Shown: positions 36,780-61,680, numbered from the stretch's first letter. The stretch is 64,000 nt of DNA from Cystobasidiomycetes sp. EMM_F5 (GCA_051047955.1 JBPGPT010000001.1:434001-498000); one strand, 5' to 3'. Notes: generated by a model not told the origin, from the sequence alone. A program made the numbers and translations.

Positions 36780-37293
36780 TTGCCTTCTAGCATTTGCAGA
36801 CCGTTGAATAAGCTGGATGAGGCTGACAATTCTGTCTCCACTATAGCTCGTCTAGAGTTATACAACCTTTTTCAAAAGACGGCAGACGTACAAGACCACG
36901 TTCTTGACCCAAGACCGCCCACTACAGCAATCAAGCGTACGACGAGCGTGCGTCCGTATCTGTTGACTTGGCTTTACCAAAATTTAGACTCTATAGCCTG
37001 ACCGCCCGCAAGGGATATGCTGCCGGCTTGCTTTTGGATGCTCGAGCGTGTTCATTCACATTGCAGCTACAGGTTTGCTCGTTGATGAAGTCGCGTATCT
37101 TCGGCCAGTAGAAATCGCGCTGAATGAATTCGAAAGTCTTGACCTGTCCGGGATAAGCAGCCTCGACAAAATTGTACTGTAAGCCGACTGTATGGACTTT
37201 AACTTCTTCGCAATCGGGCATGCAGATGAGAGATCGGTACAAAAGAAGAAATCTTCGACTTGTCGAAGTTGTGGACTTGAAGTCCATCGTCAC
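36780..37293 (-). mobile_element. Degenerate Ty3/gypsy-type LTR-retrotransposon integrase fragment
   Basis: AYPGQVKTFEFIQRDFYWPKIRDFINEQTCSCNVNEHARASKSKP resembles the integrase Zn-binding region (HPG..KT..L.R.YYWP.M..DV..YV.SC..CQ..K) with lost ligands, followed by stop codons. Confidence 0.65.
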
Positions 37294-37674
37294 AACGATC
37301 TTGATGCGCCAGCGAAGTCGGTGAGATTTGAAATAAGGTCGGAAGTAGCTAGGTCGCCAGTCAGAGACGCTTTGAAATGATCCATAAGGTCGGAAAGTTG
37401 AGATTGAACAGTCGTAGAAAGCAACGTAGTTCGGACAGCGCTTTATGTTCGGCTTCCGATGCTCTACCCTCCGCCGCAGATTCGGGAGTAGCTAGACTAT
37501 GCTCCCCCCAGATAAGACCAACGTATTGTGAGAGCGAGGCTACGCCCCGTCTGCACGAGCACCATTTCCATGCCGAGGCTGATTGTCACTGATACTGACG
37601 AGATGAGCGCTCCAGCAACGGATACGTGAGGTTTGATCCGCTCAAGCCGGGATGAGGATACTCGTAGAATAAGC

Positions 37675-45648: not shown

Positions 45649-48600
45649 ATGAGGCTGTCTCAGCTATACAAGCAGGTCCTCGGGATTACCCTCTTTGTTC
45701 TCTCGCATAACGCAGCACCAGCGCAAGCAAGCGATCTGTCGGTTGCGTGGACAAAAGTATGCTCGGCTCTGGAAATCTCCACAAAATGTGTCTCCCTCTT
45801 TCAATACCCAGACCAAATTGACACGGTCTACGGTTCGCTCACGCTATGGAAGGTTGGTTGTGTTGTGGAGCCTCTACCGCACACGTCTCTTAGCTAAATA
45901 CTGGTCGTCTTGCTCATTGCGGTGCACACAGTATAATCCGCACAAGGAGAAAATCAAAGTCGGCAATGTAATCCTCTCCATGTTTCCACGATTCTGAAGA
46001 TACTTCGTCTGCAGGGCTGCGTCCTCGGCGTATGCGGATGGACTTGGAAACCAGGTGATTTTCGCAGGGTTACGCTGATACCGCATTGGTGACGCTATTG
46101 ACCATCCCCTATCTTGGTGTACAACAGGATTCGACTCCTACATACAAAAGGTTCCGAAAGGCCTTACGGTTCGCTACAAGAGGTATTCCTCTTGCGATCT
46201 GCTCGGACGATTCTTGCCCAATTGGAAGGAAGCGAGCTCGAGGATCAGCGCCGCCTGCAAGTGTCTGCCTAAGGTCTGCTTCAATCCCTGCTACACTAGC
46301 TCTCACGTACAACGGCTCATACGAGACGTGTCATCAATCAGCTGTTCTCACTCATTGATAGCAAGACTGCCACCGCTTTTCTGGAAGGCGGCGGAAATAT
46401 CGGCCCGGGAAGCGCGGAGATCCTGCTCAAGTGGGGAGAGTACGAACAGGTAAGATCTAGCGGTACATTTCATTTCTGCGTCCGATGACTCAAGATCCAC
46501 AGTGCTCGCAAACGGCTGTGGGCGGAATTCAAAACAATGCGGGCGGCCTGACGACGGGCAGCGGCGCACTTGTATCGAGTCCGACAAGGAAGATCGTTGT
46601 GGCCGCTCAAGTTGGTAAGTGTATTCGGTAAGTAATACCGTGGCAATTACGGAATAACAAACTTGATCCTGTCAGATACTGCCCGGTATGCTGCACTGGG
46701 GGGAGCGATTGCGCCGTGCTTCGTCGGTGCTTGCTGCACCAATTGCATTGTGGCATGGCTACAGAAATATCTGGCCGACTCACAGGGTACGGATACAGTC
46801 TCTTTACTTCCTTTCAGCATTACAATAGTGATGAATTTAATATAGCGCTCATGGGAGGCCAGCTTAAAGCAATGATACAACCCTGGCTTAGTACTTTTAC
46901 AGCCATAAGCACCAGTTTCGATGCTGCCTCCTCCAATGCGAACAGTGCCGTAACAAAGATTCCTGCAATCAGAGACAAGGCAGTATTGGCATTGAGAAAC
47001 GTCTGTGCAAATGCATCTTGCGTGGAGATCGCTGCATCGAGCGCTATAGCAGACTTTCAAGCGCAATGTGAGTTATTGTCTTACGGCAGCGGTCTCAATT
47101 CTGCATGAACTGAACAGGTCGCGACAGTGACGAAGACTCTTGACGTTACTCAACAGCTCTCCGTCGTTACGCAGACTGTAGGAGCTCTCTCTAGCGATGT
47201 ACAGCAGCTCGTTTCGGCAATTTCTACGGCCTCAAAAGCCTTCGACGCTCTTGATGATTTGACTTATGCTGGCATATTAAAGATGGTCACCAATGGCGAA
47301 ATCAAGCAGCTATCGGATATCCCAAAGACCTTCCAGGGAATTACCGTCCTGCCGAAGCTCTTCCAGGACGTCGAAAGCAGAGTCCCCAAACTTACTACTG
47401 CATTGCAGCAGATCGTAGACAAGGGTCCGGTCGTCGTAACCAATTTCGAATCGCTGCTGTCAGACACATGGGTACGCAGCCTTAGTCTCGCCAACTGTCA
47501 GTCACAGCTTGCAATTCAGTCTGTGTTCATCGACATCCAAGAAGCGGTTTCGTCGACTATCCCTCAAATAGAGCTCTTCTCTACTGCGACTGCGCAACTT
47601 CAGGAAATGGTTGGACTGATCGCCAAAAGTTCCCTCGGATCGCTGCCCCAAATTGATGCTGGAGTGGCTAGCTACCAGAGGTGGTCTAAAGGGTCTTTTA
47701 CGAGTATCTGCTCCAAGATAACGCAGAAGACCATATCCAGATTTGGATTCAAGATCGATGTCTTCTATCCAGAGTTCTGGACCTGCCAACAGCCTTACTA
47801 TGTGCCGTGGCCGAATCACCACATTCCGTACTTGCGAATTCGCTTCCCGGCCAACTCGCTCTTCGCGGCACTGACACGACCATCAACAGCTAAAGGCACG
47901 ACTATCCGCTTCGCCAAGAGTGTGGTGTCGCGAACGTGTCAGGCGAACACAACTACCAGCGTCTCTCTACTGAGTACCACTTCGAGTGTCAACACGACGA
48001 CTACTACTGCTTCTCGCCTTTCAACATCGTCACAAAGTGTGACTGGCACTTCATTGTCATCGCAATCATCTAATTCTGCTGTAACAACATCGAGCTTTGT
48101 TACGTCCACTTCCAGTCGATCCTCAGTATTCTCCACGTCTACGACATCCATCTTTAGCTCCTCGTCTACCCAAGCCGGGACAAGTTCTCGCTCCACTTCT
48201 ACAGCGCGGCTGCGACCGCGACAGACGCTCCCTGCCACTGAATCAATCGAGACCACTTTGCCAGGCGCTATGCCTACCGTCCCAGCAGGCTATGTAACAG
48301 ATACGCGTGCTGTGAACCTCGCACAAAGTACGGGCATACCCGACTTTGAGTTCGAGACTACTGGGAGCAATGGGCAGATTGCAACGATAACATCTACTAT
48401 TCCGCCAACAGTGACTCTAAGCGTGACGGCAACCGAAACCATTGCCGCACCCCCTGTAACTGATATTCCGACAATTACCGAAGCTCCGCCGTATGCAGCG
48501 TACACCGAAGCCGCTGGCCTGCCGGAAGCTACGGCAGGGGAACTACAAGAAAATTGGGAGGCGGTCACCCCTGTAGCCGCGCCCGTCCCGACGGACATTC

Positions 48601-48815
48601 CTAACGGCACCGACTGCTCGTCGCAGAACCGCCCTGGTCAGGTTTATCTTGTGCCATTTGAGAACAGCTTAGAATCCGGAATCGACGTTTGCGGTATCAT
48701 TGCGGATAACCCTAGCATCAACGAAAGTTTGGCTGCATTCTCGACTAGTGCTCGCCGTTCTCGTCGCTTCATCGGATTTGCAAGACGTCGAAGAAAGGCA
48801 AAGACTGGCTTGTGA
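45649..48815 (+). CDS. Large secreted protein: Cys-rich N-terminus, helical middle, aromatic domain, Ser/Thr-rich mucin-like region, basic C-terminus
   Basis: Signal-peptide-like MRLSQLYKQVLGITLFVLSHNAAPAQA; several short Cys-containing exons; long terminal exon 47127-48815. Confidence 0.65.
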
Positions 48816-48927
48816 TTGAGCACGATTGCGCATCTTCAGCGGGTACCCTCAGCGATGTTGTATTTGCATTTGCAATGCATAAGCAGATATGAATAGTAAA
48901 GGCGCATTGGGCTCGGTGTTTACTTTA

Positions 48928-51589
48928 TCATCTTTTCCCGTTAGGACTTGTGGCGTCAATGGTCGGCGTCGATCCATAGTCATCCGAAATGAAGAGTCGT
49001 TCGTACGATGACAGGTTACCACCGCTCATTAGGCCAAAAAGTACATCGTCGCCCGATGCAGCGTCCACGTTATCAGGATTCGCCGACCACCCTTCTGGCA
49101 GCCAGATTGCCGGGGCGTGACCGATATTGTTTGTAAAGGAACGAGGATCCACAGCTGGTGCAAATGACGCAAAGAGAGCGTTCATATCAAATTGCTGTTG
49201 CGCAGAGATGTCATATTCGGATGACGTTGCTGGAATGGATATCGAACCGTGAGTCGCATTCTGCGAGGGCATCCCTACAGACATAGCAGGCGCATCAGAA
49301 CCTTGCTCAGGGGAAACATTCAATCTTTGCATAAGGGATAAGATGACTGCAAGAATACCCGATATCAGCGTGCAGCGACATAGGAATACCACACGATGTA
49401 AACATATGCTCACCAAGCTTGGCGCGTGAGACACCAGTATTCACGGTTTCCGTTTCGTTGAATATTTCCAGACAGAACTGAAGACGCCTGAAGGCTGGAG
49501 ATAGCGGGCCGAGCTGCGCGGCCACGCGCACATGGACAGTTGCAGCAATGTAGGCGCAGTAGCTGATCAAAAAGGGCGAGCGAAGAAAGCCCAAAGCGGC
49601 ACTGTGTACTTTTAGTAGTTCACTGATGGTGTCGGCGCCCTGAATACACCGCTGCCAGCTGTTTTCAGGAACGACTCCTTTCGCGTCTCGAATATGGCCC
49701 TGCGCCACGAAGGGTCTGTGTACGAGGATGATGATAGTATTCCACACGCAACTGTAGTTGGAATTATTAGCTACGTAACTTGCTTAATTCAGGTTCCCAG
49801 CCGAGAGTGGAACTTACTGCAAAGCTAACAAATTGGCAGGCACAGTCCGACCAGCGGACGTTTCACCCTCGATTTGCAAATGGCCAGGGAGGGTACTTTC
49901 AAAGTCACGAAGATCTGTCTCCAAGCGCCGTAGATTCTCCAGATGTCTTTCGGTGGAGAAATTGAAACTATCAACGCTGTATAGCCACGTTAAGGCGCGT
50001 CCCAGAATGAAACAGAGCTTGCACATAGCGCTGAACGCAGACACACTGCACACTGGCATCGGGTTTGCGGCGGGCGAGTCAGGAGTCAGAGTCGGAGGGC
50101 GCCACAACTCGCTCTCTTCGAAGGCATCGTTGAATACTAGAGGGACCCGGATATCGCCCTCTTGCAATGTAGGAGGCCGACCTTGATACAAGCTATGAAT
50201 CTTGTCGAAACAGAAGGAGCCGTACAAAACCCTCCTTCTTATCTCAACATCCTCACATGTCAGAGACTTGTCAAAAGCTGTGTTGTCGATGTGTAGGCCG
50301 AGATCGACCAGCATACGGAAAGCCAGCCCTGAATATATCCAGGACGACTCATGCTGTCCGAGCGCAAATAGTGAACTGGCGAGTAGTAAAAGCGCCTGTA
50401 TAGTCGGAATGCGAGAGCGGGTGATGGACTCGCCCATCAGCTCGTTGACACGCTTGAGGAATTGATAGCCAGCAGATCGTGGATCATTCGGTTGCGCGCG
50501 GAGTTCCGGTCGCCGACAGAATTTGGAAGCACCGAAGAATATGACGTTCAGCAGTCTGAACAAGAGTAAGTGCTCAGCTGATGATGATTGACGTTGAAAG
50601 GACGTGAGACGACAAGGACGTGACGACTTACAGTTTAGAGAAGTACTTGCCGCCTCCAGCAACGGCCATATCGCGCATAAATGCTGGCCGATAAGTCAAG
50701 AGCAGAGCATGATGCTGACGGTGCCAATGAATGTCAAGAAGCTCCATCGCTGTTTCTGCAGGCACGCCGTCGAAATCCAACCGACCGGCAGCAAGGTCGA
50801 ATATTTCTTGTCGTCGACCTCTTTCAGCGGCATCAACAAGAACAATTTCTGCCTTTTTCCTTTCTTCGGGCGTAGTATACGCCGGCAAGTGCGGTGTACT
50901 GGCTGCATTTCCTGCCCCGAAGGTGTCTGGATGATCGAAGATACTTGTGAGACCGTGAAAGGAGGATCTTCCATCGACCGCTATGTGCATTTGACGGACG
51001 GCAAAGTTGGCATCCAAGGGTGATGCATCGCTTGGCGACACGCTGGCATAGTGATTTGTCGGTTGCTTGTCTTGAGACGACACAGAAGCCGAAGCTGCTC
51101 TGGTCGTGCTTTTACCAGACCAGTTGGATAGGAGTATGTCCCTTTCGTCTGCCGAGGAGAGCTTGAGACGACGAACGAAGCTTTCGAGATCGTTCAGTTC
51201 TTGCTCGACGCTGTTCAAGAGTGCTCGGCTTGGACGAGGGCTGTTTCGTCGTGCAAGTATAGTCAGTTGTCCTATATCTCCACATCTTGGGGTCTCCAGT
51301 CTCCGCTCACCGGCTCGAGACTTCGCGCGTTGCATATTCACAATCGTTACCGCGCCTTTCGCAGTTGGCGCATGGCTGCTTGCCATCGCAGCGGATCTAC
51401 AGACATTGAACGACAGCGCACAGCGCGCGAATAGGATTGTCAGCGGGGCATTGGGGAGACTCCGTCTGGGTTCTGGTTCACTTTGCGGGTCCGACAGAAT
51501 TCGCAAGCTTTGACGACGTTGCTTGCGCTACCGCTATTGCTACGAGCTTGTGGACTTGCCGACCGTCTGCTGCTGGTGCCGCCGTCCAT
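48928..51589 (-). CDS. Zn(II)2Cys6 transcription factor with fungal-specific TF (middle homology) domain
   Basis: Spliced ACEFCRTRK|IRCDGKQPCANCERRGNDCEY; TIQALLLL..SWIYSGLAFRMLVDLGLH..EIRRRVLYGSFCFDKIHSLYQGRP; IILVHRPF. Confidence 0.93.
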
Positions 51590-51648
51590 AATCGTCTCTC
51601 GCTCCGTGGCTCCAGCGTCTGGACTGATTCCCTTCCGTTGCAGTAGTA

Positions 51649-51705
51649 CGGAGTCAAAATGCTCCGCCGCTCCGAAGGCCCGCCGGGCGGACTTCTAACA
51701 AGCCG
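51649..51705. promoter_or_regulatory. Two CGG-N12-CCG Zn2Cys6-type sites (51649-51666, 51688-51705) in the divergent TF/carrier promoter
   Basis: CGGagtcaaaatgctCCG and CGGacttctaacaagCCG, just upstream of TATATATA (51711). Confidence 0.7.
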
Positions 51706-51806
51706 GGTGCTATATATACGTAGACAGAAAGGTTCACATTGGAAACATTTTTACACCGTAAGACCTTTGCTTCTTGTGACACGCTGCCCCTACAAACACT
51801 CCCAAA

Positions 51807-52937
51807 ATGTCTTCCTCTTCGAGTACGAAAAAGCTGCAGCCATGGCAATCACTCACAGCAGGCCTCGTTGCAGGCGCAGTCGAAGGCTTCATTACCTGTA
51901 TGTAATAGCTTGCCCGCCGCATGGGCAGAGTTAACAGTATGACATCCCGCAGATCCTGCCGAAATGACAAAGACCGCTTGCCAGTTCTCAGCAAAGCAAG
52001 GCGCGCCGGTTTCGCCACTAGCTGTTGTCAAAACGACTTTCCAACAACGAGGTATCCGAGGCTTCTACAGCGGTTGCAGTGCACTCGTAGTCGGGAATTC
52101 TGCGAAAGCTGGTGTCCGCTTCTTCTGCTACGATGGCATCAAGGATCTCCTTAAAGATCAACATGTAAGCTGCTCTCCCTAGTGACGTTTCTGTCAGGAC
52201 ACTGACGAATCCTGCATCACAGACCGGAAAGTTGTCAACAGGAGGGAGCATTCTAGCCGGTGCTGCTGCCGGAGCATGTGAGGCCGTTATTGCAGTCACA
52301 CCCAGCGAAGTGAGCATAGTCATAGACAGGAGGAAGGGGGAGACGCGTGCTGACATTGCGATCCCGTCAGGCGATCAAGACGAAGCTTATCGACGATGCT
52401 AGGAGAGCGACGCCCCGCTTTCATGGGAGTGCTCATGGCCTTTCCATGATCGTCAGAGAAGAAGGTGTGACAGGCTTGTATCGTGGATTGACAGCAACAA
52501 TCCTCAAACAATCAGCAAATTCTGCCGTCCGTTTCACTTGTCAGTCAGATTCGATTGTGATACGTGGCACGCAAGCAGCCTAGCTAACATGCATTCTTGC
52601 CGTTTCAGCTTACAATGCCCTCGTATCTGGCATGCGTGCGCTGAGTGGACAACAATCAGGACCCCTTCCAAGTGTGCAAGTCTTTGCATGTGGAGCGGGT
52701 GCTGGTATCATTACAGTCTATGCAACCATGCCGTTTGACGTTGTCAAGACGCGCATGCAAGGTCTGGAAGCTGCAGCCTATGCCAACTCCTTCGACTGTG
52801 CACGCAAAGTCATCCAACAGGACGGGGTGGCAGCTTTGTGGGGAGGTAGCACAGCGCGGCTATCTCGGCTCATGTTCTCGGGAGCCATCGTCTTTACTGT
52901 ATATGAAAAGATGGCTGTTCTCTTGAAGCAGTGGTAG
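51807..52937 (+). CDS. Mitochondrial carrier, citrate/tricarboxylate transporter (Ctp1/Mtt1-like)
   Basis: Three carrier repeats YPAEMTKT, TPSEAIKTKL, MPFDVVKTRMQ; tricarboxylate-type contacts GNSAKAGVRF, KQSANSAVRF, ARLSRL. Confidence 0.9.
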
Positions 52938-53764
52938 AGTTGCTTGTCGGCTAGGGGGATCATCTGTAGCGTAGTCTGACTAAGAGAAATATTGTTGTGC
53001 ATTGTAGAAGTCATCATTTCGCTGGAAAACATAAACAGGATCGTGGCCGTTTGGATTCTGAGGTGCTATGCTAGTCTTCAGTCGGTGTTCATAGTAGTTT
53101 GTACCACGCCTCGTCAGATAGAAAGACGTGTTAGCCAGGCACTGATGCACGAAATGAGCGATGTTGGAAGCTGTGGGAGCCCTTGATTTATTCAATGATG
53201 CAATCTTGCAGCTGGAACATCCAGGACATGGAAACCGCGACAAGCCGAACTCGTTTGCCTGCAGTCGTACTGAGTTGAGTCATATGGCTGCTGTTGGAGT
53301 GCGTTAGGATTCAAGACGTCAGATCTATTTCAGTCCTCCAAATAGAATTCGGCTGCTGCTTCTGCGCTTGCTTGCCGAGGACTCAGCGCCCACATGCTCC
53401 CACTTTTGCACTTTCCGCGTACACGAGCAACCACTACGCATCGAGCAGCGTGCTGCCTGACTTCGCTGCGACCACCAGAGCACACTCGCATCAGTCCCGC
53501 ACCGCTGTATCGAGCATACTGTCGACAGCTCACCGTGAGTGCTGGTATGACGGCGAACCGAAGCTGATCGGCTCAAGCTGATCCAGCTCCCTCCAATCCA
53601 GACGAAACTTCTGGCGTAAAGCGAGACTCGTAACCCCTCTCTGTATCCTCGTACTCTGCACAAGCATACTTGTCCACCCACACTGGGCCTTCTCAGCGAG
53701 TTTTAGACTCGACCCTCTCTATTACTAAGCGCCACCCCATACATCACTCCGCTACCCCGGACCC

Positions 53765-54181
53765 ATGACCGCAGGCTGGATCATCGCTACAGCAGTCGTC
53801 GGCACACTTTGCGTCGTTGGATTTGTCGGCATCTGGATATGGTTCCCTCGTACCTTTGCTAGGGGTTTCAAAGAAGAGATGAAGGCCGTCGACGAAGAAC
53901 TTGCTGCAAAGGGCGCCTCTCCGGAGGAGGTTGCGCAAGCAAGAGCAGCGCGTAATGCAATGTCCAAGGGCATCGTCGAGCGGGCTATCGCACGTGAGCA
54001 AGCCCTCAAGCGTGGCGAAAGGCCGTCGGACGAGGCCGTCGTCCCGAGGGAGTACTACGAACGCAACCCTCACTTGGGCTTCACGGCACTGCCAGTCGTC
54101 TCTGAAGCGTCTGAACGCCATGCTACTAATGCGCCGCCAAACTACAAACCTACGGAGGCCAGTGCACCCCCGCAATACTAG
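53765..54181 (+). CDS. Small single-pass membrane protein
   Basis: 138-aa ORF, N-terminal TM helix, charged tail ending in PPNY/PPQY (PPxY-like) motifs. Confidence 0.7.
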   Translation: MTAGWIIATAVVGTLCVVGFVGIWIWFPRTFARGFKEEMKAVDEELAAKGASPEEVAQARAARNAMSKGIVERAIAREQALKRGERPSDEAVVPREYYERNPHLGFTALPVVSEASERHATNAPPNYKPTEASAPPQY

Positions 54182-54725
54182 GCCTGCGACTCGCTGGCTC
54201 AAGCAGCCCTAAATGTCTCATCAGTGAACATCAGCGACGGAAACGGAGAGTGTGATAGGCAAGGCGAAGGTCACTGGCTGCGCATTAATGTAATTCCGGA
54301 AAGAACATGCGGGCACGACGAATGATGTATCCCTAGTCGCAAACCTGTTCCATGTGTGTACGCGGAATACATCTGACAGATAATCTCCTCCTGCTAATCA
54401 GCCTGTCTGGCCATTTGAGCGAAGTCGATGTCCAAAAGCTAATTTAACGGCTGATAGTATCTTCTTTACATAGTCATTCGTATCGGGAACCCTTTGGAAT
54501 CAAACAGGAAGCACAGCTGATATTGCCCACTTTTGACGAACAGATGCTCAGACACAATGCCTTGCAGGCTGCAAGGAAAGACCACGGTGTTGTGGCTCGG
54601 TCCTAGCTGTGTTGTGCTGATGTTGGCTGAGTTCGTGTTACAGTATTCGTTCTCATAAGCTTCAACTTTTGTAGGTCGACATGCCAACCGACGATGTCGA
54701 CGGGGGGACGCAGTGCCAAGCAAGA

Positions 54726-54876
54726 CGGCTTCAGGAGACTCCGTCGACTGCCTCAGTGGTCTCGTCTCGAAAATGCTGCTTCACTCGCATAACCGGGAGA
54801 CTCGGATTCCGCTTTGGCTTGGCAGGGTCGATCGCCACCAGTCGCACCCCCAGGTCGCCGACTTTCTTTCGTTCCG
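54726..54876. promoter_or_regulatory. CGG-N12-CCG sites (54726-54743, 54794-54811; near-match CGA-N12-CCG 54859-54876) upstream of MFS copy 1
   Basis: CGGcttcaggagactCCG and CGGgagactcggattCCG; TATATAAA at about 54920. Confidence 0.7.
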
Positions 54877-55027
54877 GGTTTTTGTGACTGCGACGGAGCA
54901 ACGGAGCGCCATACACCTCTATATAAATGTTCCTCCAGTTCGCACCCCGCTTCTCCCTCCTTCCTTCCATCAAAGGCTTCTTGCATACTCCTCTCAGCCC
55001 TCATCCTGACAAAACCTCGTACACATC

Positions 55028-57066
55028 ATGGGCAAGGTCAACCTTCACAAAGTCGAGCCATATGAGCTGGTCAGTCTGTGCTTTCGTAACTTACTTCAGC
55101 TTGTGCTAAGTTGCTTTTCAGCCGACGCCGAAAGCCGTCTTTAATATCAAGGTTTACCTCGTAGCGCTTATGAGCACGGCCGCAGCGCTCGATTATGGAT
55201 ACGATCTCGGTTTTATCGGAACCACGCAGACTCTTGCAGCTTATCAGTCGTATATGGGAACAGCTGGGGCTGCGAAAGCGGCTTTCAGAGCTGAGTACAA
55301 TTCGAACGTTGTCGGTGAGTAAATTAAGTTCTCCGAACGCCAAGCACTCATCTAAACACTCCAAACAGCTCTCTTTCAGGCAGGCGCCATCGTGGGGTCC
55401 CTAGCTCCCGCAGCTCTGACATCTAGATTTGGCCGTCGACCTGTCAATATCGCCCTGGCTGTCCTTTTTATCGTAGGAAGCATAGTTCAGTCAGTTGCTG
55501 GCATGGGAGGTACAAATCCCAACGCTATGATGCTTGCTGGCCGCTTCATCAATGGTATTTCTGTCGGCGGAAGTAATTCGGTGGCTCCTTTCCTCGTTTC
55601 CGAGATGTCTCCGCCCTCAATCAGAGGAAGATTGGTCGGCATGTACGAAATTGGTGTGCAGATGGTGAGCTCCGTAGTATCAGCCTGCATCAGGAGCTAT
55701 CTAATGTGCTTCCTTCCCCGCTTTTTTTTTGTTCCTGGTTTTTTTCTCCTATCTTTTTCTCCCTTTGGTTTTTTTCTCTCCTACGTGCAGGGAACACTCT
55801 TAGGATTCTGGATATGCTACGGGCTTGTGCGAAATCACGCAGCGGACGAAATGCAATGGAGAATCCCCTTCATTCTCCAGCTCATTTTTGGTGGCCTCTA
55901 CTTGTTTGGCGCGATCTTCACGGTTCGTTGCGAAGCACTAGCTTGGAAGGCTAGCACCTGACGAAACACATTTCAGCCTGAATCTCCACGTTACTTAGCC
56001 AAATTTGGACGCGAGCGAGTATCGCGCGCTATGGCATACATTCGCAATCTTCCCGAAAGCGACGCATGGCTCAACATCGAAGTCGATGAGATCTGTGCTC
56101 AGTACGAGGCGGAGAAGGGAATGGTTGGAGTTCGCGGATTCTTCCAGGAGCTTAAACAGAAGAGCATTCGCAATCGCTTCATCATGATCACCATTCTCAT
56201 GATATTCTTCCAGTTCTCAGGCACGAATTCGGTCAACTGTAAGCTTGCATCTCCGTTACAAGTGCCGAGGTATACAATTCTAACGCATAAAACAGACTAC
56301 TCCCCGCAAATCTTCGCCAAGCTTGGTATTACCGGGCAGACCGTCTCTTTCCTTGCGACCGGTATCTACGGTGTCATCCGTTTCTCATGCGTGGTTGTCG
56401 CAATGTTCTACCTGGTCGACCGATTCGGCCGTCGTGTCAACCTTCTTACTGGCGCCGCTGTCATGGCCCTGTGCATGTGGATCATTGGTGCACTCGTCAA
56501 AACCTCTACTGGTGGCATTGCTGCTCCCTTGACTCTCATCTACATCTACGCCGCTGCCTTCGTGTGCAGCTATGCAGGCATCCCGTACATCATCAACACC
56601 GAGATCTGGCCTTCTCGTCTGCGCCCAATTGGAATAAGCTGGGGGGTTTTCGTTCATTGGGTGTTCAACCTGGTCATCGGCAAGTCTACTCCGGTGAGTT
56701 GTTGGCTCTTGCAGGCCAGAACGGATGTAGCTTACGCCGTCGGACCGATAGTACATGGTAGAGTCACTTGACTACGGCTTCTTCTGGCTCTACGCTGGCT
56801 TCCTTTCCGTCTCATGCTTCTTCATCTACTTCGTGAGTAGTTGCAGCAAGTGCAACAGCTAGATCATCTACTAAAGCACGATATCCGCCATCCTACAGTT
56901 CGTTCCAGAAACTCGGAACATCTCGCTCGAGCGGATGGAGGAAGTCTTTGGCGGCTCTGCGGCTTCCACCCATGTTCAGAGATCGGAGCTGGATGGTTCG
57001 CATTCAGAAAGCGAAGCTGCATCTCAAAAGGGCGAGGAAATGCCTATTGAACATTACAGGAAGTAG
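55028..57066 (+). CDS. MFS sugar-porter family transporter, quinate-permease-like, copy 1
   Basis: YGYDLGFIG, RFGRR, GRFINGI.VG, SEMSPPSIRGRLVG.YE, QWRIPF, PESPR, FQFSGTNSVNYYSP, DRFGRR, TEIWP..LR, VPETR. Confidence 0.92.
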
Positions 57067-57536
57067 ATGGGCACATCCCTCTTCAGCAGAACTATGCCTG
57101 TCTCGACGGCGTATACTACAGGTTCAGACCGTTGGGGAAGAGCGGCGCAGGGACGACAGACGATGTGGTATAAGTAGTGCTGTTGTTGCTTAGTATGTAG
57201 CAGAAATTCTATGATAGTACGTTAACCTTCTCACTCTTTTGCAGCCATTTTCAGCGAAAGACCATGTCCACCATTCCATTACCTGATTCAATTACGCGAA
57301 TGTCAACAGGTAAAGGTTGATAGCCGCCTGACTACGGTCACTTACTCACAATTGGCACATACTAAAGAGAGTATGGCAATGCCAAAACGTTACATTCTCC
57401 GGTAGCCGTAGGTAATGATTTCTGACGGATTGTTATGAGTACAACACCTCAGAGCTTGTTGGCTACACTATGTGCACGACGGCGCTATGGCTCGCATCTG
57501 TATCCCATAAGTTCAGCATCGGTCGCATCCCTGCAG

Positions 57537-59620
57537 CTAAGCCTTCGTTGTTTCCACTCGAGTCTCCTCATCACCTTTGCCGACCACGCTTGATCTGGGT
57601 GAGCGCTCGTCATGCGGGTACACGTGTGTCGATGCTGCTGAGCCTCCGAAGATCTCCTCCATTCTTTCGAGCGGAACATGACGGGTCTCAGGCACGAACT
57701 GCAATAACGTGTGTGTTAGTCGTGAAACACGAGACATCATTAGAAAACTCACGAAGAAGATAAATGCAACAGAAACAGTAAGGAAACCCGCATACAGCCA
57801 GAAGAAGCCGTAGTCTAATGAAGAAACCATGTACTATCGGTCGACGGCGTAAGCTCACATCGGTTCTGACCTGCAAGAGCTGACAACTCACCGGAGTAGA
57901 CTTGCCGATGACCAGGTTGAACACCCAATGAACGAAAACCCCCCAGCTTATTCCAATTGGGCGCAGACGAGAAGGCCAGATCTCGGTGTTGATGATGAAC
58001 GGTATACCAGCGAAGCTGCACACGAAAGCAGCGGCGTAGATGTAGATGAGAGTCAAGGGAGCAGCAATGCCACCAGTAGAAGTCTTGACGAGGGCGCCAA
58101 TTATCCACATGCAGATTGCCATTACTGACGCGCCCCAAAGCAGGTTGAAGCGTCGTCCGAACCGGTCGACCAGGAACAGCATAGCAATAATCACGCAAAC
58201 GAAACGGATGACACCGTATATGCCGGTGGCGAGGAAAGAGACTGTCTGTCCAGTGATACCAAGCTTGGCGAAGATTTGCGGGGAGTAGTCTGTTTTATGC
58301 GTTAGAATTGCATACCTCGGCACATGTAGCGGAGATGCAAGCTTACAGTTGACCGAATTCGTGCCAGAGAACTGGAAGAATATCATGAGGAACGTGATCA
58401 TCAGGAAGCGGTTTCGAATGCTCTTCTGCCTCAATTCCCGGAAGAAGCCACCAACGCCGACCATTCCCTTCTCGGCTTCGTATTGAGCATGAACCTCGTC
58501 GGCTTCGATATTGAGCCAGGGGTCATTCTCAGGGAGGTTTCGGATGTACGATAATGCTCTCGAGACACGCTCGCGACCATACTTTGCGAGGTATCGAGGA
58601 GATTCGGGCTAGCACAGACTTAGCTAGTAGTCAGGGGGTGTATTGCGACACGGACTTACGCAGAGGAGCGCGCAGCCAAGATAGAGGCCACCAAAAATGA
58701 GCTGGAGAATGAAGGGGATTCTCCACTGCATTTCGTCCGCTGCGTGGTTGCGCACAAGCCCGTAGCATATCCAGAATCCTAAGAGTGTTCCCTGCGCGTA
58801 GGAGAGAAAAAAACCAAAGGGAGAAAAAGATAGGAGAAAAAAACCAGGAACAAAAAAAAAGCGGGGAAAGAAGCACATTAGATAGCTCTTGATGCAGGCT
58901 GACATTAAGGAGCTCACCCCTTGCACGCCGATTTCGTACATGCCGACCAATCTCCCTCGGATTGACGGTGGCGACATTTCGGAGACCAGGAAAGGAGCGA
59001 CGGAATTGCTTCCACCAACGGAAAGGCCATTGATGAAGCGACCAGCGAGCATCATGGCATTGGGATTTGTGCCTCCGAGGCCAGCACACGATTGTACGAT
59101 GCTTCCAACGATATACAAAACAGCGAGACCAATATTGACTGGCTTCCGACCGAATTTGGCGGTTAAAACAGCCGGAGAAAGCGCTCCAATAATGGCGCCT
59201 GCTTGAAAAAGGGCTGTAGAACAGATCTAGTGAGTTCAGGACACTCTAGGGCACTTTCTTTACGCACCGACAACGTTTGAATTGAACGACGCCTGGAACG
59301 CGGCGTTAGCGGCTCCGGCCGTTCCCATGTATTTCTGGTATGGAGCTAGAGTCTGTGTAGTGCCGATGAAGCCTGCGTAGCACTGTCAGTTCTCATATTT
59401 CGCGGTTGAGGTTGTTTCTTTGCGGACCCAGATCGTAACCATAGTTCATCGCGGCAGCCGTGCCCATAAGGGCGACGAGATAGACTTTCAAATTGTACAC
59501 AGCTTTCGGTGTGGGCTACAAGTGTACTCATACGTAAACATCTTGCTTGTTTGCCCAATTATATTAATTACTTACGATTTCATAAGGCTCCACCTTAGCC
59601 AAGTTCAGTTTTCCGCCCAT
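57537..59620 (-). CDS. MFS sugar-porter family transporter, quinate-permease-like, copy 2 (inverted paralog)
   Basis: Same motifs and intron positions as copy 1; ATG MGGKLNLAKVEPY at 59620. Confidence 0.92.
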
Positions 59621-59902
59621 TTTGAAGATCGCAAAGTTGGCAGCTGGATGTAGAGTTTACTCGTTAGAGATGGGGAACGGTAGTTGAAGGGGAAAGACAA
59701 GAAGCAAGCTGGCTTTGCATGAAGTATTTGAGCCTCACGGGCGAGGAGGCCCCGACAATCATCCCCAGTCCGCCAGTCCGTCGCTAATTCGGTCCTCCAT
59801 GGTCGGCAATGGGCATTCCAGTGTCGCATTCGTCAGAGTTGGATGTTCGGCAAAGGCGAGACTAATTTTAGAAAATCTACGGATGGAGTCTGCCACCGAA
59901 AC

Positions 59903-59985
59903 CCTCGGAATCTCACTTCCGAGGACGGAACTTGGCCACTCCGTTTGGCCTGTCGTGCCTGGCGGCACGGCTTTCTACTAACCCG
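59903..59985. promoter_or_regulatory. CGG-N12-CCG sites (59926-59943, 59968-59985) and an 8-bp-arm palindrome CCTCGGAA-N6-TTCCGAGG (59903-59924) in the divergent MFS2/PrpF promoter
   Basis: CGGaacttggccactCCG and CGGctttctactaacCCG read directly from the sequence. Confidence 0.7.
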
Positions 59986-60141
59986 CCAATATGGGGACGG
60001 AACCGGAGATTGGGGTCAGCTAAGCAGAGAGCTTTCGCGCCTTCGGTGCGCATGGAGCAATTGAATGTCTTTACCGTATCCCATCTGTCTGCTTATCTCT
60101 GCCAAAATTTCGTCAGCTGAATTGTCTGCAATTATTGCATC

Positions 60142-61680
60142 ATGAACGGACACAATACGACACGTCTTTCCAGGCACACGCTGCCAGCGGTATTCATGCG
60201 CGCTGGAACGGTGAGGGAGACGCTCAGTCTTCAAGAATGCCAAAATGAAGGGCTGAAATGCGGCTTCCCCACGCAGAGTAAAGGCTTATTCATCAAAGCA
60301 AGCGACCTGCCGGAAGATAGAGAACTATGGCACGAGATACTTCTTGGTGCAATGGGTTCACCAGACCCAGTGAGCTTTACTTTATATTTGGAAGCACGCG
60401 CAGTGAATGACATCCCCTCATCGTACCGCAGTTTGGTCGACAGCTGAATGGAGTAGGTAGCGGTACTCCGACTACGTCAAAGATTGCGGTCATTGGTCCG
60501 AGCCCTCTCGAGGACGTCGACGTCGACTACACTTTTGTTGCTGTTCCAATTGGAGGAGACCGCTTGGATTTCTCGGTAACTCCATGCTGCGGAAAAAGAG
60601 CGTCGGCGCGTATATTGACAGACATTCGGTACAGGGGAACTGCGGCAACATGGCTAGCGGCGTCGCTCCGTTCGCTATTGAAGCTGGGCTCGTCAATCTG
60701 AAGAAGCCGAGCGGTGAAGTTTCTGTAAAGATCCGAAACACGAACACTGGCGTGATTATGCGATCTACCCTTGAAGTGCGCGATGGAATTCCTCTGGAAG
60801 CTGGTTCCTGCATACTCGTGAGTAGAGTACAGATATGCGCGCAAAAATAATCTGAATTACCGCTGCATAGGATGGAGTGCCTGAATCTGGAGCGCCAATC
60901 AAGCTGGATTTCCTCAATCCATCTGGAGCCATGACGGGCAAGTTGCTGCCGAGCGGGAACAGCATCGATGAAGTTCAGCTCGAAAGCAAGCCCAACGGAT
61001 TCAGCTCTTTCCAAGTTTCATTGATCGACGCCGCCAATCCTTTCGTATATGTACGAGCTGCCGACCTTGGTCTGACTGGCAATGAGGCTCCCGCTGCGCT
61101 CATCAAGCATATTGACACCCTAATGGCGATAAGATGCGCAGCCGCTGTCAAGATGGGTCTCGCTCCGGATGTCGCGACTGCTGCGTTGACTGCAGGAACT
61201 CCGAAGATTGCAATAGTCGGCCCTCCTGCAGCATACGTGACTCCAGCAGGGAGACAGCTCAAAGATACGGACATGAATCTTACTATTCGCTCGTTTGGTA
61301 TGGGTGCACCTCATCCGACTCTACAAATGACTGGCGCAGTTTGCCTAGCAGCTGCCTGCGCTGTACCTGGCAGTATACCCAATCAGATCGTGACTGCCGG
61401 CAGCAAGAAGCTGAGTTCTCCACTACGCGTAGCTCATGCCAGCGGTATACTCGAGATCGAGTCCGATTTGGAGATCAATGGAGCAGGTACTGTCATAGTT
61501 CATAGCGGTTCTGTCTATCGGACTGCACGCCGGCTCTTTGAAGGCAACGTTGCCTATCTGGCAAAGGAGGTCGTGTCGGCGCCTATCGCAAAAAGCAATG
61601 GTGTTGCAGCGCATCATGTCAAGCATGCAGTGTTGGAGAATGGACACGTCACCATGCCACGCATGACGGAGGTAGCGTGA
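60142..61680 (+). CDS. PrpF-family isomerase (aconitate delta-isomerase / 2-methylaconitate isomerase-like)
   Basis: PAVFMRAGTSKGLF, MGSPDP.GRQLNGVG.G..TTSK, GNCGNMASGV (catalytic Cys), IRNTNT, IKLDFLNP.GAMTGKLLPSG, SLIDAANP, H.TLQMTGAVCL, RTARRLFEG. Confidence 0.92.

Follow-up and report, generated by a model that had tools for sequence, protein, structure and literature searches.

We analyzed a 64-kb stretch (the window: all 64,000 nucleotides, with positions counted from the first letter) of the genome of Cystobasidiomycetes sp. EMM_F5. Positions 48928-61680 carry five intron-bearing genes, which encode a Zn2Cys6 transcription factor (TF), a mitochondrial carrier, two permeases of the major facilitator superfamily (MFS1 and MFS2), and a PrpF-family isomerase. 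Spliced models were built by hand, and their introns are all of the GT..AG type, with lengths between 51 and 126 nt. Pfam domains matched 12 of 20 stop-to-stop open reading frame (ORF) pieces: Fungal_trans at 49814-50695 (minus strand), Mito_carr in three pieces at 51943-52937 (plus strand), Sugar_tr in four pieces covering both MFS genes, PrpF in three pieces at 60121-61680 (plus strand), and TPR in the downstream flank. The TF gene lies on the minus strand at 48928-51589 (765 amino acids [aa], 5 introns; exons 51589-51482, 51396-51311, 51240-50632, 50555-49818, 49751-49414, and 49346-48928). A divergent promoter of 217 bp between start codons (51590-51806) separates it from the plus-strand gene for a carrier of the tricarboxylate (CTP/SLC25A1) group at 51807-52937 (295 aa, 4 introns; exons 51807-51897, 51953-52164, 52223-52309, 52371-52539, and 52609-52937). 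MFS1, a permease of the sugar-porter family, follows on the plus strand at 55028-57066 (523 aa, 8 exons, 7 introns), and its inverted paralogue MFS2 lies on the minus strand at 57537-59620 (522 aa, 9 exons, 8 introns), so that the two are tail to tail (convergent). A second divergent promoter (59621-60141; 521 bp between start codons) leads from MFS2 to the plus-strand isomerase gene at 60142-61680 (432 aa, 4 introns; exons 60142-60210, 60277-60369, 60432-60575, 60635-60817, and 60871-61680). A first-pass annotation had called these five genes at the same coordinates and orientations and had described a TF-carrier pair and an MFS2-PrpF pair, both divergent, with MFS1 between them. The Pfam matches and spliced models bear out the calls, and the models also reproduce the layout.

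The identity of the genes, their models, and their family membership are established. The MFS1 and PrpF models are identical to the public proteins EMMF5_000180 (523 of 523 residues) and EMMF5_000182 (432 of 432 residues), and residues 32-522 of the MFS2 model equal all 491 residues of EMMF5_000181. The latter begins 31 residues after the start of our MFS2 model, which follows the structure of MFS1 in this region (59428-59620); the first exon is probably missing from the public model. These identities assign the window to this basidiomycete yeast or to an identical strain and rule out an ascomycete source, which intron size and GC content had at first suggested.

The isomerase matches Pfam PrpF (PF04303) over its full length (348.9 bits against a cutoff of 27; profile positions 4-368 of 371) and contains both catalytic residues, the lysine as residue 17 of exon 3 and the cysteine as residue 3 of exon 4, which supports its initial assignment to this family. 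In alignments, these residues correspond to positions 62 and 96 of 3-methylitaconate isomerase (Mii), which we take to be the catalytic K62 and C96 of that enzyme. Calculated from reported alignment ranges, they also fall at residues 73 and 107 of structure 2pvz; K73 and C107 are given as the catalytic residues of Shewanella PrpF (SoPrpF), a protein that was crystallized with trans-aconitate (PMC5690661). Among solved structures, the N-terminal exons are closest to Mii and YbhH. The best NCBIfam match of the full-length protein was the oxalomesaconate tautomerase GalD (NF033377; 289.9 bits against an equivalog cutoff of 440), with PrpF (TIGR02334) a close second (261.5 bits against 440.55). 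Judged by these profiles, the protein is neither PrpF nor oxalomesaconate tautomerase in the strict sense.

The first-pass annotation had asked for the PrpF protein to be placed among its bacterial relatives. A quick maximum-likelihood search over 53 rows (14 fungal and 39 bacterial; bacterial rows L017 and L022 were dropped for stop codons), with branch support taken only from the Shimodaira-Hasegawa-like approximate likelihood ratio test (SH-aLRT), placed the fungal rows in one clade (support of 100) apart from all bacterial rows. Within it we recovered three groups: the window protein with Cyphobasidiales and a relative from a 5803-bp contig (SH-aLRT of 96), three Microbotryomycetes (99), and Tremellomycetes with the metagenome loci L001 to L004 described below (100). 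Since these groups roughly follow taxonomy, the tree points to old vertical inheritance of the fungal PrpF within basidiomycetes. The named fungi among the best 120 of 1477 matches to the last PrpF exon were Saitozyma, Kockovaella, Cryptotrichosporon, and three Microbotryomycetes. No Ustilaginomycotina protein occurred among these 120 matches, and therefore the aconitate isomerase Adi1 of Ustilago maydis probably lies outside the tight fungal clade. In one member of the alignment (P0240, from a Cyphobasidiales metagenome-assembled genome [MAG]), the public model apparently reads through the first intron, producing a 17-residue insert absent from all other rows.

The carrier, which contains three Mito_carr pieces, had been described as resembling the tricarboxylate carriers Ctp1 and Mtt1, and both identity and phylogeny place it in the CTP group. 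We compared it with 398 proteins and also drew on an exhaustive representative search and cluster look-ups (here and throughout, protein names are the annotations of their sources). Its best full-length match was a protein of Exobasidium rhododendri (50%), and it was 43 to 50% identical over its full length to proteins named tricarboxylate transporter, e.g., those of Pyricularia oryzae and Martensiomyces (43 to 49%). In a tree of 42 rows (quick search, SH-aLRT support only), it fell inside a 38-row CTP group that excluded the outgroup carriers (SH-aLRT of 91) and paired with the carrier of the Cyphobasidiales cluster (100). It did not group with the Rhodosporidiobolus-Pseudohyphozyma pair (99) of its own subphylum, and the carriers of loci L003 and L004 formed a separate clade; the backbone of the tree was not resolved. 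This placement hints that the window carrier may be a dedicated paralogue. A PDB search with the carrier returned ADP/ATP carriers and UCP as the best matches and no tricarboxylate-carrier structure.

The permeases match Sugar_tr (TIGR00879 family) over the full profile (357.1 bits; positions 3-452 of 452) and are 83.6% identical to each other over 518 aa. The nearest Atlas cluster is automatically named "Quinate transporter" (score of 0.99), and once close cystobasidiomycete relatives are set aside, the named proteins most similar to the permeases are quinate transporters or permeases (36 to 39% identity). Their description as permeases of the sugar-porter/quinate-permease type is therefore upheld by the full-length match and by the names of the relatives; any specificity for quinate is a suggestion of those source names. 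At the nucleotide level, the two copies are mosaic. MFS1 introns 3, 5, and 6 are 90 to 95% identical to their MFS2 counterparts, compared to 57 to 88% for most exons and 42 to 63% for the other introns. The pattern looks like two gene-conversion tracts between the inverted copies, one comprising intron 3 and exon 4 and the other comprising introns 5 and 6 with the exon between them (exon 6); alternatively, it may reflect conserved elements within introns, notably a T-rich intron of 126 nt. MFS2 has an additional 55-nt intron (59373-59427) splitting an exon that is single in MFS1. In the spliced translation of the TF, the six-cysteine pattern spans the junction of exons 1 and 2, and the Fungal_trans domain scored 105.3 bits; the orthologue P0250 carries both Zn_clus and Fungal_trans.

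Next, we looked for the same gene set in other fungi. In a Cyphobasidiales MAG, a carrier (CYPHOPRED_000577; 69% identical to the window carrier over 275 aa) is two locus tags from a PrpF gene (CYPHOPRED_000579; 61% identical to the window PrpF over 413 aa) on one 44836-bp contig. In Saitozyma podzolica, the PrpF relative EHS25_001039 (53% identity) adjoins by locus tag the Zn2Cys6 gene EHS25_001038, whose product is 37.6% identical to the window TF over 702 aa (E = 1e-135; 42% and E = 2e-57 in the middle region). PrpF and the neighboring Zn2Cys6 factor of Saitozyma sp. JCM 24511 are fused in a single 1138-aa gene model (P0249), which looks like an error of the public model. Linkage of PrpF and MFS is also indicated, indirectly, by records of matching contig size and source. 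A PrpF cluster (90% clustering; 63% identity in the last exon) and an MFS cluster (78 to 81% identity to the spliced MFS models over 226 aa) are recorded on contigs of the same sizes and sources (one of 5803 bp from ENA, another of 5488 bp from Logan), and a second pair is recorded on a 9479-bp Logan contig (PrpF at 54%; MFS as a fragment of 183 aa that matches 29% of the read-through query at 69% identity).

Metagenomes extended this picture. We used an alignment of fungal PrpF proteins to scan JGI metagenome contigs and kept the best 80 of 513 relatives. A tblastn search with the five spliced proteins found at least two of them in 4 of the 80 loci: MFS, PrpF, and TF in L001; PrpF, TF, and carrier in L003 and L004; and PrpF and TF in L006. 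Combined with Pfam matches on 136 ORFs of L001 to L004, the gene orders were Sugar_tr MFS, PrpF, and Fungal_trans TF in L001; Sugar_tr MFS, PrpF, and contig end in L002; Sugar_tr MFS, PrpF, TF, a non-CTP Mito_carr, and a CTP-like Mito_carr in L003; PrpF, TF, and the same two carrier types in L004; and PrpF followed by TF in L006. L002, L003, and L004 are nearly identical in PrpF and were counted as one lineage. The L001 permease belongs to the same subgroup as the window permeases (44% identity in a C-terminal piece). The second, non-CTP carrier is divergent from the CTP-like one (L003:8011-8554 and L004:4219-5018, both on the minus strand); its best BLAST matches among the compared proteins were at 32 to 37% and had uninformative names, an Atlas search returned Mito_carr only, and none of 114 scanned window ORFs was a counterpart. 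L001 ends in an esterase, and L003 has an aldo-keto reductase about 3 kb past the carrier. The flanks of L001 to L004 contained no Tad1-type, PrpD-type, or aconitase domain by Pfam, and no second enzyme family was common to the related flanks, leaving PrpF as the sole conserved enzyme.

Gene order in the related loci is thus unlike that of the window, and membership is kept. Conservation of linkage is itself an observation, and the co-occurrence elsewhere that the first-pass annotation had proposed as a check is seen in the Cyphobasidiales, Saitozyma, and metagenome loci, each of which links parts of the set. Because such linkage recurs in several lineages, the grouping is not a matter of chance, and by this comparative evidence the five genes are a true gene cluster kept in other fungi. 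Genes for Zn2Cys6 factors and MFS proteins are very common in fungal genomes, and five neighbors without a common function could in principle arise from this abundance. We consider this very improbable, however, given that orthologous parts are linked in lineages of two basidiomycete subphyla despite the rearranged order and that the three promoter regions of the window share an enriched motif.

Zn2Cys6 factors usually bind paired CGG triplets. We tried 48 classes of paired CGG/CCG motifs, in a test that was post hoc. The window contains 18 copies of the motif CGG-N12-CCG, against 10.96 expected from shuffles, and 6 of the 18 sites fall within the three promoter regions, which total 1466 bp (0.41 expected; Poisson P = 4.8e-6), an enrichment that still has a small P value after multiplication by 48. 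Each region has two sites: 51649-51666 and 51688-51705 in the TF/carrier promoter, 54726-54743 and 54794-54811 at 217 to 302 bp upstream of the MFS1 start codon, and 59926-59943 and 59968-59985 in the MFS2/PrpF promoter. The exact k-mers common to the three promoters amounted to one 8-mer and nothing longer.

The closest described fungal system is the itaconate cluster of U. maydis, which consists of tad1, itp1, adi1, mtt1, ria1, cyp3, and rdo1 (PMC4720413). Both systems occur in basidiomycetes and combine a cytosolic PrpF-family aconitate isomerase (so predicted for the window protein) with a CTP-family carrier, an MFS protein, and a regulator, and for Adi1, as for the window PrpF, the best characterized match reported there is oxalomesaconate tautomerase; Adi1 and Mtt1 are likened to the window proteins by family description only. 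According to the same source, U. maydis has two Adi1 paralogues (UMAG_02807 and UMAG_06058). Unlike in the Ustilago cluster, the window regulator is a Zn2Cys6 protein instead of the basic helix-loop-helix (bHLH) factor Ria1, and the permeases are sugar porters instead of an EmrD-like protein such as Itp1 (Table 1 of PMC4720413); Tad1, Cyp3, and Rdo1 have no counterpart in the window cluster. The likeness to Ustilago drawn in the first-pass annotation consequently holds for the PrpF and carrier families and fails for the regulator and MFS families.

We searched 114 window ORFs (95 of the 98 upstream of position 48900 that reach 110 aa, 18 of the 22 in 52900-55100 that reach 50 aa, and a single downstream ORF) for Lyase_1 (Tad1-type), MmgE/PrpD (CadA-type), aconitase, and Citrate_synt domains and found none, although short exons may have been missed. 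The earlier statement that no Tad1- or CadA-like gene lies nearby therefore stands for these ORFs and for the flanks of L001 to L004. The same result bears on whether the window carries one half of a split Ustilago-type itaconate pathway, with Tad1 or CadA encoded elsewhere in the genome. The pairing of PrpF with a CTP carrier recalls U. maydis, where adi1 adjoins mtt1 (PMC4720413), and the host is a basidiomycete yeast. Given the missing decarboxylase domains in both the scanned window ORFs and the flanks of L001 to L004, the lack of Ustilaginomycotina among the best 120 PrpF matches, and the different regulator and MFS families, such a split pathway seems extremely improbable.

We propose that this basidiomycete-yeast cluster handles an exogenous unsaturated tricarboxylate, most likely trans-aconitate, by uptake, cytosolic isomerization, and mitochondrial import; we assign this reading a probability of roughly 45%. 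The two sugar-porter-type proteins would import the acid across the plasma membrane. The cytosolic PrpF-family delta-isomerase, the sole enzyme of the cluster, would then convert it into cis-aconitate, as suggested by its family, the conserved lysine and cysteine, and the one-enzyme logic of the locus. The CTP-family carrier would exchange cis-aconitate into mitochondria for the tricarboxylic acid (TCA) cycle, and the Zn2Cys6 factor may activate all four targets through the CGG-N12-CCG sites of the three promoter regions, as their enrichment implies. Here, substrate, flux direction, protein localization, and regulation are what we infer. Keeping one isomerase as the only enzyme implies a substrate that is one isomerization away from central metabolism, and a eukaryote would need a tricarboxylate-type carrier to bring cis-aconitate to the mitochondrial aconitase. 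In favor of aconitate, it is isomerized by the PrpF-family enzymes Adi1 (PMC4720413), TarA, and TbrA (PMC11495376). To our knowledge, the characterized fungal members of the sugar-porter family are importers, and the MFS type suggests, without proving, an inward direction. EMM_F5 is a culturable phyllosphere (leaf-surface) yeast (PMC12697161), and a habitat supplied with plant organic acids, of which trans-aconitate on Magnolia leaves may be one, fits the trans-aconitate proposal.

A bacterial precedent shows that few parts may be enough. Bacillus velezensis has TarR (a regulator), TarB (an MFS importer), and TarA (an aconitate isomerase of the PrpF superfamily), and these three are reported to suffice for channeling trans-aconitate into the TCA cycle (PMC11495376). 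The window cluster likewise has a regulator, an MFS importer (by prediction), and one PrpF-superfamily isomerase, a comparison made by description only. Unlike the Tar system, it is eukaryotic, includes an additional mitochondrial carrier, uses another regulator family, and has duplicated sugar-porter MFS genes.

Several observations weigh against trans-aconitate assimilation. The isomerase missed both NCBIfam equivalog cutoffs, and its substrate therefore cannot be read from family membership; the nearest bacterial PrpF relatives are spread over varied polycarboxylate loci. The equilibrium of Adi1 is reported as 88:12 toward trans-aconitate (PMC4720413), which favors production as much as it permits assimilation. 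The permeases next to PrpF in L002 and L003, although Sugar_tr proteins, are related to the window permeases only distantly, and a single clade for all cluster-linked carriers was unsupported. The CGG-N12-CCG enrichment comes from a post hoc test, and apart from two PrpF-TF sites in L006, the related tremellomycete-like loci did not show the motif. Of the original interpretation, the real and conserved cluster, the protein families, and the lack of a nearby Tad1 or CadA stand; trans-aconitate is a candidate substrate, and inward flux is the predicted direction.

The neighborhoods of the bacterial PrpF relatives bring in other substrates. We examined 34 bacterial loci, taking two ORFs on each side of PrpF (112 of the 129 listed ORFs were scanned). 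Nine had citrate synthase and/or aconitase upstream (AcnD-PrpF type), 11 had a phosphoenolpyruvate (PEP)-mutase/isocitrate lyase (ICL)-type lyase, an FAD_binding_2 flavoprotein, or both (in some cases together with GntR, MmgE/PrpD, or TctC), 4 had an acyl-CoA dehydrogenase neighbor, and 10 had other neighbors. In the lyase/flavoprotein loci (L008, L015, L018, L028, L032, L040, L046, L056, L061, L065, and L066), the flavoprotein is about 490 aa long and in some cases is accompanied by GntR/FCD; these loci look like an uncharacterized polycarboxylate catabolic route. L014, which lies near the Ferrovibrio-type proteins that are the best bacterial matches to the window PrpF, has two MmgE/PrpD genes, an ATP-binding cassette (ABC) importer, GntR, TctC, and TctA around PrpF. 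The bacterial relatives thus appear to act on polycarboxylates in uptake-linked loci and do not fix the substrate of the fungal protein.

Accordingly, the same parts may serve to assimilate, or to salvage internally, another unsaturated di- or tricarboxylate, with PrpF supplying an isomerization that housekeeping enzymes lack. Candidates are 2- or 4-methylaconitate, itaconate/citraconate/mesaconate, and oxalomesaconate-like products of ring cleavage. The NCBIfam ranking, with oxalomesaconate tautomerase ahead of PrpF, would fit such a substrate, as would the structural proximity of the N-terminal exons to Mii and YbhH, the quinate transporter names of the MFS relatives, and the MmgE/PrpD, ICL-like lyase, FAD flavoprotein, and TctA/TctC genes beside the bacterial relatives. 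However, such pathways require a dedicated hydratase, lyase, or CoA-transferase, none of which is kept in the fungal clusters seen, and the fungal clade is apart from the clade of AcnD-linked PrpF. We regard another substrate as possible but rather doubtful. The AcnD-PrpF branch of the bacterial 2-methylcitrate cycle does share the Pfam family and the catalytic lysine and cysteine with the window protein (as described for SoPrpF in PMC5690661). It differs in that the bacterial rows adjoining aconitase and citrate synthase all fall in a clade of their own (SH-aLRT of 99), that the window protein stays below the TIGR02334 cutoff, and that the window ORFs scanned include no aconitase or methylcitrate synthase neighbor.

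Reversing the flow gives a production cluster, in which the carrier would export cis-aconitate from mitochondria in the manner of Mtt1 and MttA, PrpF would pull it to the trans form in the cytosol, and the MFS proteins would secrete trans-aconitate as an inhibitor or antifeedant. Mitochondrial carriers are reversible antiporters, and the Adi1 equilibrium of 88% trans would suit this direction. With an aconitate isomerase and an exporter, Mtt1 or MttA makes trans-aconitate or supplies itaconate synthesis (PMC4720413, PMC13755589). MttA, an aconitate isomerase, and an MFS exporter have been deliberately assembled in Aspergillus niger for trans-aconitate production (PMC13755589), and tbrA/tbrB of Bacillus thuringiensis are described as a natural isomerase-exporter pair (PMC11495376). 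The window cluster resembles tbrA/tbrB and the engineered A. niger modules (MttA with TbrA or Adi1 and AexA) in its carrier, isomerase, and plasma-membrane MFS parts, as far as these two sources describe them. It differs in that those systems export and the MFS type of the window suggests import; in comparison with the A. niger modules, it is also natural, conserved, and equipped with its own regulator. No nitrogen-limitation or secondary-metabolism context is visible at the locus. The organic-acid exporters MfsA and CexA are of the drug/H+ antiporter type. So is the exporter Itp1 (EmrD-like; PMC4720413), unlike the sugar-porter-type permeases of the window. We therefore judge production to be unlikely, and trans-aconitate assimilation is the reading that we retain.

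The surroundings of the cluster are of a different kind. The TPR and PB1 domains of the downstream neighbor agree with NoxR, the identification first given to it. The S/T-rich ORF on the upstream flank (47109-48812) had no Pfam match. The remaining window genes are of the housekeeping type (alanyl-tRNA synthetase, ALAD, RagA/Gtr1, polyubiquitin, and others). A plus-strand ORF of 150 aa (53729-54181), with one hydrophobic helix and no Pfam match, lies in the 2.1 kb that separate the carrier gene from MFS1. About 11 kb upstream of the cluster, an ORF piece at 36994-37491 (minus strand) matches Integrase_H2C2 (E = 3.5e-6) and is probably a retrotransposon remnant.

Our literature search turned up the itaconate cluster of Ustilago, the Tar and Tbr systems of bacteria, and engineered strains; it found no fungal cluster of this make-up, in agreement with the first-pass annotation, and no fungal pathway for trans-aconitate assimilation. 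Trans-aconitate, an acid abundant in plants and soil, inhibits aconitase, and its use by bacteria was worked out only in 2024. In a bolder version of our proposal, the cluster would represent the first pathway by which a eukaryote assimilates trans-aconitate: an ancient module of basidiomycetes that joins an aconitate isomerase to a CTP-type carrier, a Zn2Cys6 factor, and a sugar-porter importer and that is possibly the ancestral set of the Ustilago itaconate cluster. We think this version improbable at present, yet it suggests in concrete terms how the Ustilago cluster could have arisen, namely, by the addition of Tad1, replacement of the regulator and the plasma-membrane transporter, and reversal of the flux. 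Since the host strain is culturable (PMC12697161), the trans-aconitate idea is directly testable. If true, the cluster would be a naturally occurring equivalent of the carrier-isomerase-exporter designs that have been engineered to produce aconitate and itaconate and would offer new parts for engineering: an isomerase clade, importers, a carrier, and an inducible promoter-regulator pair. It would also explain how phyllosphere, lichen-associated, and soil yeasts use or detoxify trans-aconitate.

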